Sequence record: MK962754.1
Source of the DNA: Shigella phage JK36
DNA: 64,000 nt
Reading direction: 5' to 3' (one strand)
Below the pieces are notes generated by a model. It did no database searches. It was not told where the DNA came from and worked only from the letters and a program-made list of their open reading frames with translations. The translations under genes and the position numbers were made by a program. Positions 12,578-54,878 of this stretch are shown piece after piece (the first letter of the stretch is position 1; each line of letters starts with the position of its first letter).

Positions 12578-13422
12578 GTATATGGTAAAGACCCTATCGC
12601 TGCTGGCGCTAAAGAAGCTTTCCATCCGATGTATGCTCCAGATGCGATGTTCTCTGGTCAGGGTGCTGCTAAGAAATTCCCAGCTCTGGCTGCTGACACT
12701 ACTACTGTTGTAGGTGATATCTATACTCACTTCTTCCAAGAAACTGGTACTGTATATCTGCAAGCTTCTGCTGTCGTAACACTTGATTCTGGTGCAACTG
12801 ATGCAGCTAAATTAGATGCAGAAGTTAAGAAACAAATGGAAGCTGGTGCACTGGTAGAAATCGCTGAAGGTATGGCTACTTCTATCGCTGAACTCCAGGA
12901 AGGTTTCAACGGTTCTACCGATAACCCATGGAATGAAATGGGCTTCCGTATCGATAAACAAGTTATCGAAGCTAAATCTCGCCAGCTGAAAGCTGCTTAC
13001 TCTATCGAATTAGCACAAGACCTCCGTGCAGTACACGGTATGGATGCTGATGCTGAATTGAGCGGTATTCTGGCTACAGAAATTATGCTAGAAATCAACC
13101 GTGAAGTTGTTGATTGGATTAACTACTCTGCACAGGTTGGTAAATCTGGTATGACCCTGACTCCGGGTTCTAAAGCTGGTGTATTTGACTTCCAGGACCC
13201 GATTGATATCCGTGGTGCTCGTTGGGCCGGTGAAAGCTTTAAATCTCTGTTGTTCCAGATTCATAAAGAAGCAGTTGAAATTGCTCGTCAAACCGGTCGC
13301 GGTGAAGGTAACTTCATTATCGCTTCCCGTAACGTAGTTAACGTACTGGCTTCAGTTGATACTGGTATTTCTTACGCTGCACAGGGTCTGGCTTCTGGTT
13401 TTAATACCGACACTACTAAGTC
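12578..13422 (+). repeat. tandem duplication copy 1 (845 bp) within gene 23
   Basis: Aligns to 13423..14267 at offset 845; left flank differs at 12577 (a) vs 13422 (c); by eye the only mismatch is 13262 c vs 14107 g. Confidence 0.9.
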
Positions 13423-14267
13423 GTATATGGTAAAGACCCTATCGCTGCTGGCGCTAAAGAAGCTTTCCATCCGATGTATGCTCCAGATGCGATGTTCTCT
13501 GGTCAGGGTGCTGCTAAGAAATTCCCAGCTCTGGCTGCTGACACTACTACTGTTGTAGGTGATATCTATACTCACTTCTTCCAAGAAACTGGTACTGTAT
13601 ATCTGCAAGCTTCTGCTGTCGTAACACTTGATTCTGGTGCAACTGATGCAGCTAAATTAGATGCAGAAGTTAAGAAACAAATGGAAGCTGGTGCACTGGT
13701 AGAAATCGCTGAAGGTATGGCTACTTCTATCGCTGAACTCCAGGAAGGTTTCAACGGTTCTACCGATAACCCATGGAATGAAATGGGCTTCCGTATCGAT
13801 AAACAAGTTATCGAAGCTAAATCTCGCCAGCTGAAAGCTGCTTACTCTATCGAATTAGCACAAGACCTCCGTGCAGTACACGGTATGGATGCTGATGCTG
13901 AATTGAGCGGTATTCTGGCTACAGAAATTATGCTAGAAATCAACCGTGAAGTTGTTGATTGGATTAACTACTCTGCACAGGTTGGTAAATCTGGTATGAC
14001 CCTGACTCCGGGTTCTAAAGCTGGTGTATTTGACTTCCAGGACCCGATTGATATCCGTGGTGCTCGTTGGGCCGGTGAAAGCTTTAAATCTCTGTTGTTC
14101 CAGATTGATAAAGAAGCAGTTGAAATTGCTCGTCAAACCGGTCGCGGTGAAGGTAACTTCATTATCGCTTCCCGTAACGTAGTTAACGTACTGGCTTCAG
14201 TTGATACTGGTATTTCTTACGCTGCACAGGGTCTGGCTTCTGGTTTTAATACCGACACTACTAAGTC
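13423..14267 (+). repeat. tandem duplication copy 2 (845 bp) within gene 23
   Basis: Starts immediately after copy 1 (junction 13422/13423); right flank diverges at 14268. Confidence 0.9.
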
Positions 14268-14625
14268 TGTATTTGCCGGTGTACTTGGTGGTAAATACCG
14301 CGTATACATCGACCAGTATGCTAAACAGGATTACTTCACCGTTGGTTACAAAGGCGCTAACGAAATGGATGCAGGTATTTACTATGCTCCTTACGTTGCA
14401 CTTACCCCGCTGCGTGGTTCCGATCCTAAGAACTTCCAGCCGGTAATGGGCTTTAAAACTCGTTACGGTATCGGTGTTAACCCGTTTGCTGAAAGTTCCC
14501 TGCAGGCTCCAGGTGCTCGCATCCAGTCCGGTATGCCATCTATCCTGAACAGCCTTGGTAAGAACGCTTACTTCCGCCGTGTATATGTAAAAGGCATCTA
14601 ATCTTAATTGATTAAATCTTATTTT

Positions 14626-14649
14626 GGGAGACTTCGGTCTCCCATTTTT
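14626..14649 (+). terminator. rho-independent terminator after gene 23 (GGGAGAC-TTCG-GTCTCCC plus T-run)
   Basis: 7-bp GC-rich stem with UUCG loop followed by ATTTTT, just after the gene 23 stop. Confidence 0.75.
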
Positions 14650-14653
14650 GGTT

Positions 14654-14923
14654 TTATTTCTGTGCAATTTCGATGTAAGTTTTCAAAATATTTTGCCAAT
14701 TAGGCATACCTTCTTGGACATATGCCGGAGAACCGTCTTTGTTTTTGAATGATGCAAGTTTATCAGTGGCCCAATAACCTTTAGCTCGAGCTTCAGAATC
14801 AACTTTCATCCATACTTTGTTGAAGGCATTACCATTAACTTTTGCACCATATTTTTCTACTAACTTAACTGCTTCAGCTTCCAGAACTTTTAAAGTATCT
14901 CGTAAGAAACGTGCTTTAGTCAT
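14654..14923 (-). CDS. hypothetical small early protein (89 aa), antisense to the surrounding late genes
   Basis: ATG start with GAGGAG RBS about 8 nt upstream; early-type promoter at 14954..14983; ORF ends just before the shared terminator hairpin. Confidence 0.55.
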   Translation of the reverse strand: MTKARFLRDTLKVLEAEAVKLVEKYGAKVNGNAFNKVWMKVDSEARAKGYWATDKLASFKNKDGSPAYVQEGMPNWQNILKTYIEIAQK

Positions 14924-14953
14924 TTTGTTTACTCCTCTGTAGTTGATAAGTCT

Positions 14954-14983
14954 ATAGTATCACATACCAAATACGTTGTAAAC
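14954..14983 (-). promoter_or_regulatory. early-type promoter (minus strand: GTTTAC-N18-TACTAT) for the 89-aa ORF
   Basis: Reverse complement reads GTTTACaacgtatttggtatgtgaTACTAT; same motif family recurs upstream of many minus-strand genes here. Confidence 0.55.
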
Positions 14984-14989
14984 AATCTT

Positions 14990-14997
14990 TATAAATA
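14990..14997 (+). promoter_or_regulatory. late promoter box TATAAATA upstream of gene 24
   Basis: Exact TATAAATA 28 nt upstream of the gene 24 ATG. Confidence 0.6.
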
Positions 14998-15024
14998 ATC
15001 TATATCACATAAGGAAAAAATGCA

Positions 15025-16308
15025 ATGAGTAAAATCCAAAAATTATTGCGTGAATCTACAACGTCTACTAGCAACTCAATTGGTCGCCCAAATCTCGTTG
15101 CTTTGACTCGCGCTACGACTAAATTAATATATTCTGACATTGTAGCAACACAAAGAACTAATCAACCTGTTGCTGCTTTTTATGGTATCAAATATCTTAA
15201 CCCAGATAACGAATTCACATTTAAAACCGGTGCTACTTATGCTGGCGAAGTTGGATATGTAGACCGAGAAAAAATTACTGAGCTCACAGAAGAATCAAAA
15301 GTCACACTAAATAAAGGTGATTTTTTCAAATATAATAATATCGTCTATAAAGTGTTAGAAGATACACCATTTGCAGATATTCAAGAAAGTGATCTAGAAT
15401 TAGCTCTTCAGATTGCAGTCGTTCATTTAAAGGTACGGTTATTTTCAGATGCAGCGGTAACAAGCAAATTTGAAAGCTCTGGTAGCGAAATTTCTGATGC
15501 AAGATTCCAGATTAATAAATGGCAAACTTCAGTCAAATCTCGTAAACTTAAAACTGGCCTCACGGTTGAATTAGCGCAAGATTTGGAAGCGAATGGATTT
15601 GATGCCCCTAACTTCTTAGAAGATTTGCTTGCTACTGAAATGGCTGATGAAATTAATAAAGATATTCTTCAGTCTTTAATTACTGTATCGAAACGTTATA
15701 AAGTTACTGGAATTACTGACACCGGATTTATTGACTTGAGCTATGCATCCGCTCCAGAAGCAGGTCGTTCATTATATCGAATGGTGTGTGAAATGGTATC
15801 ACACATTCAAAAAGAGACAACTTATACTGCAACGTTTTGTGTAGCCTCAGCTCGTGCAGCTGCTATTCTTGCTGCTTCTGGTTGGTTAAAACATAAGCCA
15901 GAAGATGACAAGTATCTTTCACAAAATGCTTATGGATTCTTGGCAAATGGATTACCTCTTTACTGCGATACCAACAGTCCGTTAGATTATGTTATTGTGG
16001 GTGTTGTAGAAAATATCGGCGAAAAAGAAATTGTAGGGTCCATCTTTTATGCTCCATACACTGAAGGAGTAGATTTAGATGACCCGGAACATGTCGGTGC
16101 ATTTAAAGTTGTAGTTGATCCGGAAAGTTTGCAACCGTCTATCGGATTATTGGTTAGATATGCTTTATCAGCAAATCCTTACACAGTAGCAAAAGACGAA
16201 AAAGAAGCGAGAATAATTGATGGCGGGGACATGGATAAAATGGCAGGACGTTCAGACTTGTCTGTTTTATTAGGTGTTAAGCTACCAAAAATTATCATTG
16301 ATGAATAA
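15025..16308 (+). CDS. 24: capsid vertex protein gp24
   Basis: 427-aa ORF with gp23-like fold signatures; follows gene 23 as in T4. Confidence 0.9.
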   Translation: MSKIQKLLRESTTSTSNSIGRPNLVALTRATTKLIYSDIVATQRTNQPVAAFYGIKYLNPDNEFTFKTGATYAGEVGYVDREKITELTEESKVTLNKGDFFKYNNIVYKVLEDTPFADIQESDLELALQIAVVHLKVRLFSDAAVTSKFESSGSEISDARFQINKWQTSVKSRKLKTGLTVELAQDLEANGFDAPNFLEDLLATEMADEINKDILQSLITVSKRYKVTGITDTGFIDLSYASAPEAGRSLYRMVCEMVSHIQKETTYTATFCVASARAAAILAASGWLKHKPEDDKYLSQNAYGFLANGLPLYCDTNSPLDYVIVGVVENIGEKEIVGSIFYAPYTEGVDLDDPEHVGAFKVVVDPESLQPSIGLLVRYALSANPYTVAKDEKEARIIDGGDMDKMAGRSDLSVLLGVKLPKIIIDE

Positions 16309-17456: not shown

Positions 17457-17708
17457 TTAGAACTTGATTTCTATCCAATGACCATCACGCTGGTCGTGAT
17501 TAATTTTGTACTGAAAGCCGTTATCACGAAGCCATTGACCGACTTGTTCAGTTATAGTTAAATCGTTCTTTGACGGGTAGTACGTGAATTGTGTCTGGCC
17601 TTTATCAGCGGCTTTCTCTGCCATCACAGAGAAGTTAGTAATAAAATCACTCAACAAATTAGCTTTAGTGGCCAGCGCCCTTTCTCTTAATTCCTGTGCA
17701 AAACTCAT
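17457..17708 (-). CDS. hypothetical protein (83 aa; T4 24.2-like by position)
   Basis: ATG start; start/stop overlap with upstream ORF; position between rnlB and hoc. Confidence 0.6.
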   Translation of the reverse strand: MSFAQELRERALATKANLLSDFITNFSVMAEKAADKGQTQFTYYPSKNDLTITEQVGQWLRDNGFQYKINHDQRDGHWIEIKF

Positions 17709-17899
17709 TTCTTCACCTTTTTGTTAATCAAACGTTTACGGTATACAACTTTTTCTTTTGCTTTAAACTTTGACCGAGCTATCTCGGCTTTAGTCCATAG
17801 TAATCCAACTTCTTTAGGTTGTAAACCAATTTTTTGAGCAATTTCTACGAATGAAAATCCCGCCTCATGTAATGTATAAACTTCAACTTCAGCTCTCAT
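17705..17899 (-). CDS. hypothetical small protein (64 aa) with helix-turn-helix-like segment (T4 24.3-like by position)
   Basis: ORF track start 17905 is TTG; first ATG at 17899; segment FSFVEIAQKIGLQPKEV resembles an HTH; basic C-terminus. Confidence 0.5.
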   Translation of the reverse strand: MRAEVEVYTLHEAGFSFVEIAQKIGLQPKEVGLLWTKAEIARSKFKAKEKVVYRKRLINKKVKK

Positions 17900-17980
17900 A
17901 ATCAATCCCGTACTATTTGGTTTGTGCCATTATATACATAAATCTCAAGTTGTGTTTTGTATGCTTTAAAAACGAAGAAA

Positions 17981-30286: not shown

Positions 30287-30316
30287 ATAGTATCACACAT
30301 CCATGTGTTTGTAAAC
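30287..30316 (-). promoter_or_regulatory. early-type promoter (minus: TTTACA-N18-TACTAT)
   Basis: Reverse complement reads agTTTACAaacacatggatgtgtgaTACTAT. Confidence 0.5.
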
Positions 30317-37204: not shown

Positions 37205-37233
37205 ATAATAACATAACCTGTACCAAAGTAAAC
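37205..37233 (-). promoter_or_regulatory. early-type promoter (minus: GTTTAC-N17-TATTAT)
   Basis: Reverse complement reads caGTTTACtttggtacaggttatgtTATTATAGAC. Confidence 0.55.
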
Positions 37234-37648: not shown

Positions 37649-37677
37649 ATAGTAACACATCCTACAGGAGAGTAAAC
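37649..37677 (-). promoter_or_regulatory. early-type promoter (minus: GTTTAC-N17-TACTAT)
   Basis: Reverse complement reads atGTTTACtctcctgtaggatgtgtTACTATAGAC. Confidence 0.55.
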
Positions 37678-40116: not shown

Positions 40117-40146
40117 ATCATATCACAACTCCACCAGGTTGTAAAC
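40117..40146 (-). promoter_or_regulatory. early-type promoter (minus: GTTTAC-N18-TATGAT)
   Basis: Reverse complement reads tgGTTTACaacctggtggagttgtgaTATGAT. Confidence 0.5.
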
Positions 40147-42243: not shown

Positions 42244-42273
42244 ATTATACTCTGCTCCTGAGAGTTTGTAAAC
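42244..42273 (-). promoter_or_regulatory. early-type promoter (minus: TTTACA-N18-TATAAT)
   Basis: Reverse complement reads agTTTACAaactctcaggagcagagTATAAT. Confidence 0.5.
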
Positions 42274-43648: not shown

Positions 43649-43678
43649 ATAGTATCACCATCCTTGGTGTTTGTAAAC
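43649..43678 (-). promoter_or_regulatory. early-type promoter (minus: TTTACA-N18-TACTAT) upstream of alc
   Basis: Reverse complement reads ggTTTACAaacaccaaggatggtgaTACTAT. Confidence 0.5.
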
Positions 43679-44830: not shown

Positions 44831-44860
44831 AATTGTACCACAATCCTTGTGGTATGTAAA
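44831..44860 (-). promoter_or_regulatory. early-type promoter (minus: GTTTAC-N18-TACAAT) upstream of rnlA
   Basis: Reverse complement reads taGTTTACataccacaaggattgtggTACAAT. Confidence 0.5.
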
Positions 44861-45271
44861 CTACTTTTTCTTATGTTGGATATTCCAAGGCGGGTTGAAC
44901 TTTTTGATAAAAAGCGGTTCTTCAAGGTCCATTGTTGCGATGGTCATTGAACCAAGTTCGTTGGTGACTGAAAGGTCAAAACATTGGCGGGCCCAGAATT
45001 CAACCTTTTTGCCTTGCATTAAGGCATCCAAAATCATAAGTGATTTTCTTGAATCTGAAGTCTGGTCTTTTCGATTTATGGCTGTTCGATAATAGTTAAT
45101 GCGTTTCTTTAAATTCTTGGTTTTACCAATATACACAAGTTCGTCATCTATAGCAATAGCATATATGACATTTTTCTTATTAGGGACATCAACTGTTTTA
45201 ATTGTTGCATCTTCTAATAGCTCCAATTCTGTATATTTAATAAAGGAATATTCGGCGGCGATATCTTTCAT
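44861..45271 (-). CDS. denA: endonuclease II (GIY-YIG-like; degrades cytosine-containing host DNA in T4)
   Basis: 136-aa ORF, same length as T4 EndoII, with IYAIAIDDELVYIGKTKNLKKR GIY-YIG-like core. Confidence 0.85.
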   Translation of the reverse strand: MKDIAAEYSFIKYTELELLEDATIKTVDVPNKKNVIYAIAIDDELVYIGKTKNLKKRINYYRTAINRKDQTSDSRKSLMILDALMQGKKVEFWARQCFDLSVTNELGSMTIATMDLEEPLFIKKFNPPWNIQHKKK

Positions 45272-51550: not shown

Positions 51551-51579
51551 ATACTAACACATCCAGGGAAGAAGTAAAC
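51551..51579 (-). promoter_or_regulatory. early-type promoter (minus: GTTTAC-N17-TAGTAT)
   Basis: Reverse complement reads ttGTTTACttcttccctggatgtgtTAGTATAGAC. Confidence 0.55.
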
Positions 51580-54848: not shown

Positions 54849-54878
54849 ATAGTAACACACTCATTTGAAAGCGTAAAC
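54849..54878 (-). promoter_or_regulatory. early-type promoter (minus: GTTTAC-N18-TACTAT) upstream of rnh
   Basis: Reverse complement reads caGTTTACgctttcaaatgagtgtgtTACTATAGAC. Confidence 0.55.

Follow-up and report, generated by a model that had tools for sequence, protein, structure and literature searches.

A small antisense gene with an early-type promoter at the polymorphic junction of capsid genes 23 and 24 in Shigella phage JK36 and related T-even phages

The gene 23/24 junction and its transcription signals

The locus was studied in a stretch of 64,000 nucleotides from Shigella phage JK36 (MK962754.1), referred to here as the window. The DNA around the ORF of interest is that of a T4-like phage of the genus Mosigvirus. 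Over positions 14500-15100 the identity with Escherichia phage APCEc01, JK42, and SCS57 was 100%, and at least 80% of this interval was covered by 120 phage records. An earlier note on this DNA had placed a small antisense ORF between the late genes 23 and 24, with an ATG start and a GAGGAG ribosome-binding site; the ORF list contained it exactly where it had been placed, at 14654..14923 on the minus strand, and both the start codon and the GAGGAG, 8 nt apart, were read directly from the sequence. The features of the junction are as follows.

14599..15027, gene 23/gene 24 junction from stop codon to start codon, the polymorphic slot that holds the cassette
14599..14601, plus strand, stop codon of gene 23 (major capsid)
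14625..14644, plus strand, GC-rich hairpin GGGAGAC-UUCG-GUCUCCC followed by a U-run, the intrinsic terminator of gene 23 (terminator scan)
14654..14923, minus strand, ORF, the gene of the 89-aa protein (ORF list and translation)
14656..14654, minus strand, stop codon TAA of the ORF
14923..14921, minus strand, start codon ATG of the ORF
14932..14937, minus strand (reverse complement), Shine-Dalgarno sequence GAGGAG, 8 nt before the ATG (read from the sequence)
About 14947, minus strand, predicted transcription start
14983..14954, minus strand, T4-type early (sigma-70) promoter (consensus scan)
14959..14954, minus strand, -10 element TACTAT, with a 17-nt spacer from the -35
14962..14961, minus strand, TG of the early promoter
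14983..14978, minus strand, -35 element GTTTAC
14990..14997, plus strand, TATAAATA, T4 late-promoter consensus, for gene 24 (read from the sequence)
15025, plus strand, start of gene 24 (vertex)

The early-type promoter that the earlier note had assigned to the ORF at 14954..14983 was recovered by the consensus scan, in which GTTTACA-N17-TACTAT with a TG before the -10 was the sole minus-strand promoter of the region. It has the GTTTAC(A/T), the spacer of about 17 nt, and the TGn plus TAnnnT of a T4-type early promoter, and its hexamers also fit TTTACW-N17-TAYWAT, the published consensus of the T-even PeSL promoters (PMC4122927). In the 64-kb window there were 11 matches to the pattern GTTTAC-N16-19-TANNAT, where shuffled sequences gave an expectation of 1.23, an excess of about 9-fold (n=100 shuffles; the highest shuffle count was 4 and none reached 11). 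All 11 matches were on the minus strand, and most of them shared the extended -10 TGTGATACTAT or TGTGTTACTAT. The ten other matches (minus strand; 17797-17826, 30287-30316, 37205-37233, 37649-37677, 40117-40146, 42244-42273, 43649-43678, 44832-44861, 51551-51579, and 54849-54878) are candidate early promoters of the phage, most of them with a TGTGATACTAT-like extended -10; the one at 17797-17826 falls within a 66-aa ORF (17705..17905).

On the plus strand, TATAAATA, which from established T4 knowledge we take to be the late promoter of gene 24, stands back to back with the early promoter. Since it lies only 6 nt from the early -35, the 101-nt spacer carries two divergent back-to-back promoters. 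Alignment of the upstream regions of all homologous loci showed three conserved blocks: TATTTATAAA, the presumed late promoter of gene 24 read from the opposite strand; GTTTACA; and the -10 (TACTAT, TATTAT, or CATAAT) along with GGAG and the ATG. Across three genera the -35 and -10 hexamers were conserved while the 17 nt between them diverged, and GGAG was kept at an equal distance in every T-even-type homologous locus. The complement of the late-promoter motif, TATTTATA, was conserved in every homologous junction, including that of the Tequatrovirus RB7, which has no ORF. The RB7 junction kept both the late promoter and the hairpin, but the GTTTACA element sought there was absent, which makes the early promoter a component of the cassette.

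At the other end, the hairpin starts 23 nt past the stop codon of gene 23 and finishes 9 nt before the stop codon of the ORF, in agreement with the claim that the ORF ends at the gene 23 terminator. It folds with -16.1 kcal/mol (z -4.8) on the plus strand and -13.5 kcal/mol (z -6.3) on the minus, and the homologous loci have kept it. Its minus-strand continuation is AAAAUAAG, with no U-run, and the scan called no minus-strand terminator in the junction region. Because the hairpin is without a U-run on that strand, the transcript of the ORF probably continues antisense into gene 23. Among known RNA families, none came near threshold in the junction.

Upstream of the junction, gene 23 of the window carries a tandem duplication of 845 bp, with 12578..13422 repeated at 13423..14267 (junction 13422/13423). 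The two copies differ by a single mismatch (13262 C vs 14107 G) and are not bordered by microhomology. The length of 845 bp is no multiple of 3, so that gene 23 falls into two ORFs, of 456 aa and 375 aa. Gene 23 of APCEc01 is single, with 1569 bp, and the duplication junction was spanned by none of 871 matching phage records. The duplication is probably an artefact of assembly or construction, and a phage that carried it should not make normal capsid protein.

Coding status, relatives, and predicted fold of the product

In APCEc01 the gene order is gene 23 (plus), the 270-bp CDS APCEc01_119 on the opposite strand, gene 24 (plus), and then rnlB. The ORF is 100% identical to APCEc01_119, which is annotated as a hypothetical protein, and it matched the PHROG 6003 profile significantly over its full length (E 2.1e-45, 153.6 bits, residues 1-89 on profile positions 1-90 of 90), which makes it a member of that family. 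The family is already catalogued, as PHROG 6003, APCEc01_119, JS98 orf173, and VR7ORF190c, and it carries the label "hypothetical protein" in more than 200 phage genomes. APCEc01_119, JS98 orf173, VR7ORF190c, and RB69ORF188c/189c all lie antisense between genes 23 and 24 behind a promoter of like type and form one gene family; in the literature searched, no paper named any of these four or the ORF itself.

The protein was matched by tblastn in 240 phage records, 238 of which covered at least 80% of it, and the frame was intact in 238 of the 240 (more than 98%). About 120 records were at least 80% identical and belonged to Mosigvirus, and about 120 were less than 60% identical, in the range of 30-38%, and belonged to Dhakavirus (among them JS98, JS10, and Bp7) and Gaprivervirus (among them VR7 and VR25). 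Homologues at 61-71% identity were found in metagenomic T-even contigs. In JS98, VR7, 04086, and the metagenomic contigs, the homologue lay invariably antisense between genes 23 and 24. The dN/dS ratio, calculated by the Nei-Gojobori method on unsaturated pairs, was 0.08-0.14 for JS98 against L017, LF82-3, and 04086, and 0.16 (dS 1.8) for the ORF of the window against the metagenomic copy P0006. The earlier note had named homologues that do not conserve the frame as a finding that would speak against the gene; the frame was kept at 30-71% identity with a dN/dS of about 0.1. By these ratios the amino-acid sequence is clearly under purifying selection, and the comparisons mark the ORF as a genuine protein-coding gene.

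The product has 89 aa, 10.1 kDa, a pI of 9.6, and a GRAVY of -0.56, and is hydrophilic overall. The AlphaFold2 models of the Mosig-type protein (pLDDT 88.6) and the Dhaka-type protein (pLDDT 93.7) had identical topology, with a predicted helix at residues 3-25, a second helix at 31-48, a β-hairpin, and a C-terminal helix. The residues invariant across all members include M1, K3, F6, G31, N32, N35, and Q70, and an (N/H)GNxxN motif lies in the loop joining helices 1 and 2. Two annotations in the family are worth recording: orf166 of IME08 (locus L009, 1582-1863) is annotated from an upstream ATG, which adds MRRLK before the conserved Met, and the JGI name given to P0006, "NADPH-dependent curcumin reductase CurA", is plainly mistaken.

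Searches of Pfam, NCBIfam, PADLOC, and PDB sequences, made with the protein alone as well as with profiles of the family, yielded nothing beyond inconsistent matches below threshold. Those to Ca_bind_SSO6904, DUF5380, RFC1 BRCT, and a C2 domain were rejected as noise, and so was DUF4859, which scored 17.9 bits, below its cut-off of 22.6, and was matched by only 2 of 13 members. No family of defence-system proteins in PADLOC-DB was matched at E ≤ 1. Foldseek found nothing significant in the PDB and a single match in BFVD, an 88-aa viral protein of 31% identity. The earlier reading of the ORF as a short frame unrelated to segD and without nuclease motifs was borne out: the family profile aligned with T4 SegD by hhalign at a probability of 1.4%, and neither GIY-YIG nor any other nuclease or Pfam domain was matched.

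An exhaustive HMM search of 1.84 billion representatives returned two distant members from other phage types, P0021 (E 5.5e-19) and P0022 (E 7.3e-13). The gene of P0021 is found in an array of small ORFs, all on one strand and early-gene-like, and that of P0022 beside a tail-tip gene in a contig related to 42-kb Serratia siphoviruses. Each of the two is preceded by its own sigma-70-like promoter and followed by a hairpin. These GC hairpins (L025, 3263-3280; L026, 3271-3288) lie within about 10 nt after the gene, with the T-run on the opposite strand; the orientation is that of the window, yet the neighbours are on the same strand as the gene, where a reverse-strand terminator is unexpected. 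Another contig, P0020, of 701 bp, was chimeric. Outside the family, the same search matched two giant proteins with Big_2/Ig repeats, at about 30% pairwise similarity per repeat. This link to the Ig-like fold was rejected, with a profile-profile probability of 6.3% and with residues 31-48 modelled as helical (pLDDT about 95) in both alleles. A pattern-based search of limited sensitivity through 185,579 bacterial and archaeal species (one genome each) found no relatives, and the IMG/VR search returned only sequenced genomes of T-even length.

Polymorphism of the junction and transfer of the cassette

The comparison of the junction across T4-like genomes that the earlier note had proposed revealed a polymorphic slot. 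Junctions were surveyed by distant-mode BLAST with rows sampled evenly down the ranking, which gave 20 Tequatrovirus rows. In 17 of them, for example RB7, genes 23 and 24 were about 83 nt apart with no annotated feature between them, and the flanking genes of the sampled Tequatrovirus records had 84-86% DNA identity to the window. The junctions of T4 and T6 held segD, which confirmed the position that the earlier note had given for T4 segD, here on the minus strand; those of the Mosig-, Dhaka-, and Gaprivervirus phages held the ORF family. Both genes were present in tandem in IME08 (Dhakavirus), LF82-3 (Mosigvirus), 04086, and others, with segD starting 3 nt past the ORF stop codon on the minus strand. 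This pattern of presence, absence, and replacement among relatives agrees with the view that the junction is a site for accessory genes.

Two phages had cassettes and flanks of different origin. LF82-3 (L007, 905-1850) had gene 23 and 24 flanks with 96.4% identity to the window and only 70-84% to IME08, but its cassette, a Dhaka-type ORF with segD, was 91% identical to that of IME08 and gave no BLASTN match to the window. Its upstream sequence was that of the window through GAGGAG, with the switch point directly after. The Tequatrovirus EP01 (L008, 895-1240) combined flanks 97.6% identical to RB7 with a cassette 97.1% identical to JS98. The breakpoints of exchange are located close to the ends of genes 23 and 24. 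As these chimeras show, whole cassettes have been swapped between genera through recombination there, sometimes together with segD, and the promoter and RBS travel with the gene. Homologous recombination of the ordinary kind, within the conserved capsid genes, accounts for the spread, at times with co-conversion driven by segD. The neighbourhood also varies in the copy number of gene 24: the window and T4 have one, whereas tandem paralogues 24a and 24b stand beside the cassette in Dhakavirus (L002, 335-2899) and Gaprivervirus (L003, 331-2895), as in one metagenomic T-even phage (L020, 337-2901).

The cassette shares its slot and its antisense strand with T4 segD, a free-standing GIY-YIG homing endonuclease gene. 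Upstream of T4 segD there is a similar TTTACA-N17-TATTAT preceded by TG (minus strand; L006, 7254-7282, corresponding to NC_000866, 107253-107281), at a position matching the early promoter of the window. The conservation of this promoter points to a homologous early promoter for T4 segD. Time-resolved omics of T4 placed segD early at the RNA level and detected its protein (PMC9697503, supplementary files 4-6); a 2010 review had found no segD-specific promoter identifiable and expected vanishingly low transcript levels (PMC2988022). The proteins themselves differ: SegD has 223 aa and is unrelated, while the ORF encodes 89 aa with no GIY-YIG motif and is mostly found without segD. Early expression of the ORF is a well-supported inference from the type of its promoter, the conservation of that promoter, and the T4 segD omics; in the text of PhageExpressionAtlas, no Mosigvirus transcriptome was found.

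Comeau, Arbiol, and Krisch described PeSL (promoter-early stem-loop) cassettes in T4-like phages and remarked that those inside core regions accompany plastic, non-essential adaptive genes (Arbiol 2010; Comeau 2014, PMC4122927). The window cassette resembles PeSL cassettes as a variable small ORF with an early promoter, Shine-Dalgarno sequence, and ATG inside a conserved core block, at a site of indels and replacements between close relatives. It differs in that the stem-loop upstream of the promoter that defines a PeSL was absent between the start of gene 24 and the promoter, the only hairpin being the gene 23 terminator downstream of the ORF, and in that its breakpoints fall near the ends of genes 23 and 24 rather than at PeSL motifs.

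A second likeness is to the morons of lambdoid phages, in which a promoter, a gene, and a terminator are inserted between two conserved genes. The cassette, a putatively autonomous unit, likewise lies between adjacent conserved structural genes, is present in some relatives and absent from others, and is probably not needed for virion assembly. Unlike a moron, it is found in a virulent phage with, most probably, lytic early expression rather than expression from a prophage, and it has no convincing terminator on its own strand (minus-strand hairpin of -13.5 kcal/mol, then AAAAUAAG).

Possible role of the product and competing explanations

The architecture of the cassette, its coding status, and its mobility are held with high confidence. 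In this self-contained unit an 89-codon gene follows a T4 early promoter of the sigma-70 type and a Shine-Dalgarno sequence, and the unit is opposed to the late genes 23 and 24. Its transcription would begin within minutes of infection, by host RNA polymerase that is still unmodified, and its predicted product is a small, basic, cytoplasmic protein of the helix-helix-hairpin-helix type. The protein most probably binds a macromolecule of the host, less likely one of the phage, and would act stoichiometrically, as an accessory factor that is niche-specific and serves host takeover or counter-defence. Neither an enzymatic activity nor a place in the virion is likely; against the former stand its length of 89 aa and the lack of any Pfam, NCBIfam, PADLOC, PDB-sequence, or fold match. 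The basic charge could equally suit nucleic-acid binding for another purpose. We regard the host-directed accessory or counter-defence role, proposed by analogy with other small early genes of T-even phages, as tentative and somewhat short of an even chance, while the whole account, a promoter-equipped mobile early cassette with an accessory product, is the reading we modestly favour.

The gene is probably dispensable for laboratory growth, because RB69 and mogra, in which the frame is broken, are isolated phages. In the RB69 reference record (L005, 9292-9532, corresponding to NC_004928, 109291-109531), two indels, one of +1 and one of -1, disrupt the frame alongside a cluster of mismatches, and it is annotated as two tiny ORFs, RB69ORF188c/189c. 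In phage mogra (MN850579, 65653-65918), the annotation covers no more than a C-terminal piece of 51 aa, and tblastn matched the protein there in two pieces. The broken copies are either natural knock-outs or, for RB69, perhaps the trace of old errors in sequencing, with no true pseudogenisation. As more than 98% of the records are intact, the distribution argues that the gene is useful in nature and not neutral.

A more specific version of the proposed role is that the product is an early inhibitor, with a new fold, of an immune or stress pathway of the host, and that the Mosig-type and Dhaka-type alleles, about 30% identical and traded between genera at this junction of capsid genes, reflect an arms race with different variants of the host. 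We consider this anti-defence function improbable though worth stating, and given the adjacency to gene 23, a capsid-sensing abortive-infection system is a conceivable target.

Other explanations place the function elsewhere than in a host-directed protein. In the first, the antisense transcript itself would be functional, damping premature or read-through capsid expression by interference or as an "anti-late RNA", with the ORF incidental. The promoter is conserved, its -35 lies only 6 nt from the late promoter of gene 24, and read-through against gene 23 is plausible with a hairpin that runs into AAAAUAAG and no terminator called on the minus strand. However, it is the protein that is under strong purifying selection (dN/dS about 0.1), the RBS and start codon are conserved along with the promoter, and a compact fold was predicted with confidence for both alleles. 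Furthermore, the distant homologues occur in phages in which nothing lies antisense to them, and most sampled Tequatrovirus records do without a promoter at this place. We judge an RNA function distinctly unlikely as the primary one; an RNA effect could be a side-effect of the cassette.

Nearly the same low likelihood, if marginally lower, is given to the ORF being a passenger or partner of a segD element, as a helper, an immunity factor, or a remnant, and spread by homing alone. The two genes form one minus-strand unit, with segD 3 nt past the ORF stop, in IME08, 04086, LF82-3, and others; LF82-3 gained both together, and segD fills the slot in T4 and T6. Yet each occurs without the other, the ORF without segD in about 120 Mosig-type records as well as in JS98, VR7, and EP01, and T4 segD without the ORF. 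EP01 gained the ORF cassette alone, the product has no sequence relationship to SegD, and the distant members are found in contexts without homing endonuclease genes. Co-conversion with segD is best seen as one route of transfer and not as the function of the ORF.

A role in head morphogenesis, as a chaperone, a scaffold accessory, or a minor capsid component, would explain the position between genes 23 and 24 inside the head-gene cluster, and there was a very weak match to a PHROG family of "internal virion protein" (E 0.09). The gene is, however, on the opposite strand with an early rather than a late promoter, and it is missing from most sampled Tequatrovirus records despite gene 23/24 flanks of 84-86% identity. 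RB69 and mogra, both isolated phages, carry it with a broken frame, and its homologues in the siphovirus-like contig and in the early-gene-like array are away from head genes. This role is very improbable. Finally, a chance, functionless ORF in the intergenic spacer, which its shortness, the lack of a known domain, and the split frame of the RB69 reference record might suggest, is effectively refuted by the intact frame in 238 of 240 records, the conservation across genera at 30% identity with a dN/dS of about 0.1, the conserved promoter and RBS, and the confident fold prediction.

The preferred reading, a mobile early cassette with an accessory product, describes an ordinary feature as it stands, one more uncharacterised small early gene of T-even phages that is already annotated in databases. 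The cassette nevertheless offers a clean natural case, being missing in some phages, present as one of two divergent alleles in others, and elsewhere supplanted or accompanied by a homing endonuclease, always at one fixed site, and that site falls inside the most conserved part of the genome. Since the frame-broken RB69 and mogra and the allele swaps of EP01 and LF82-3 exist, screening for a phenotype would be cheap. Should the product turn out to act against host defence, the anti-defence repertoire would gain a small fold that is new to it.
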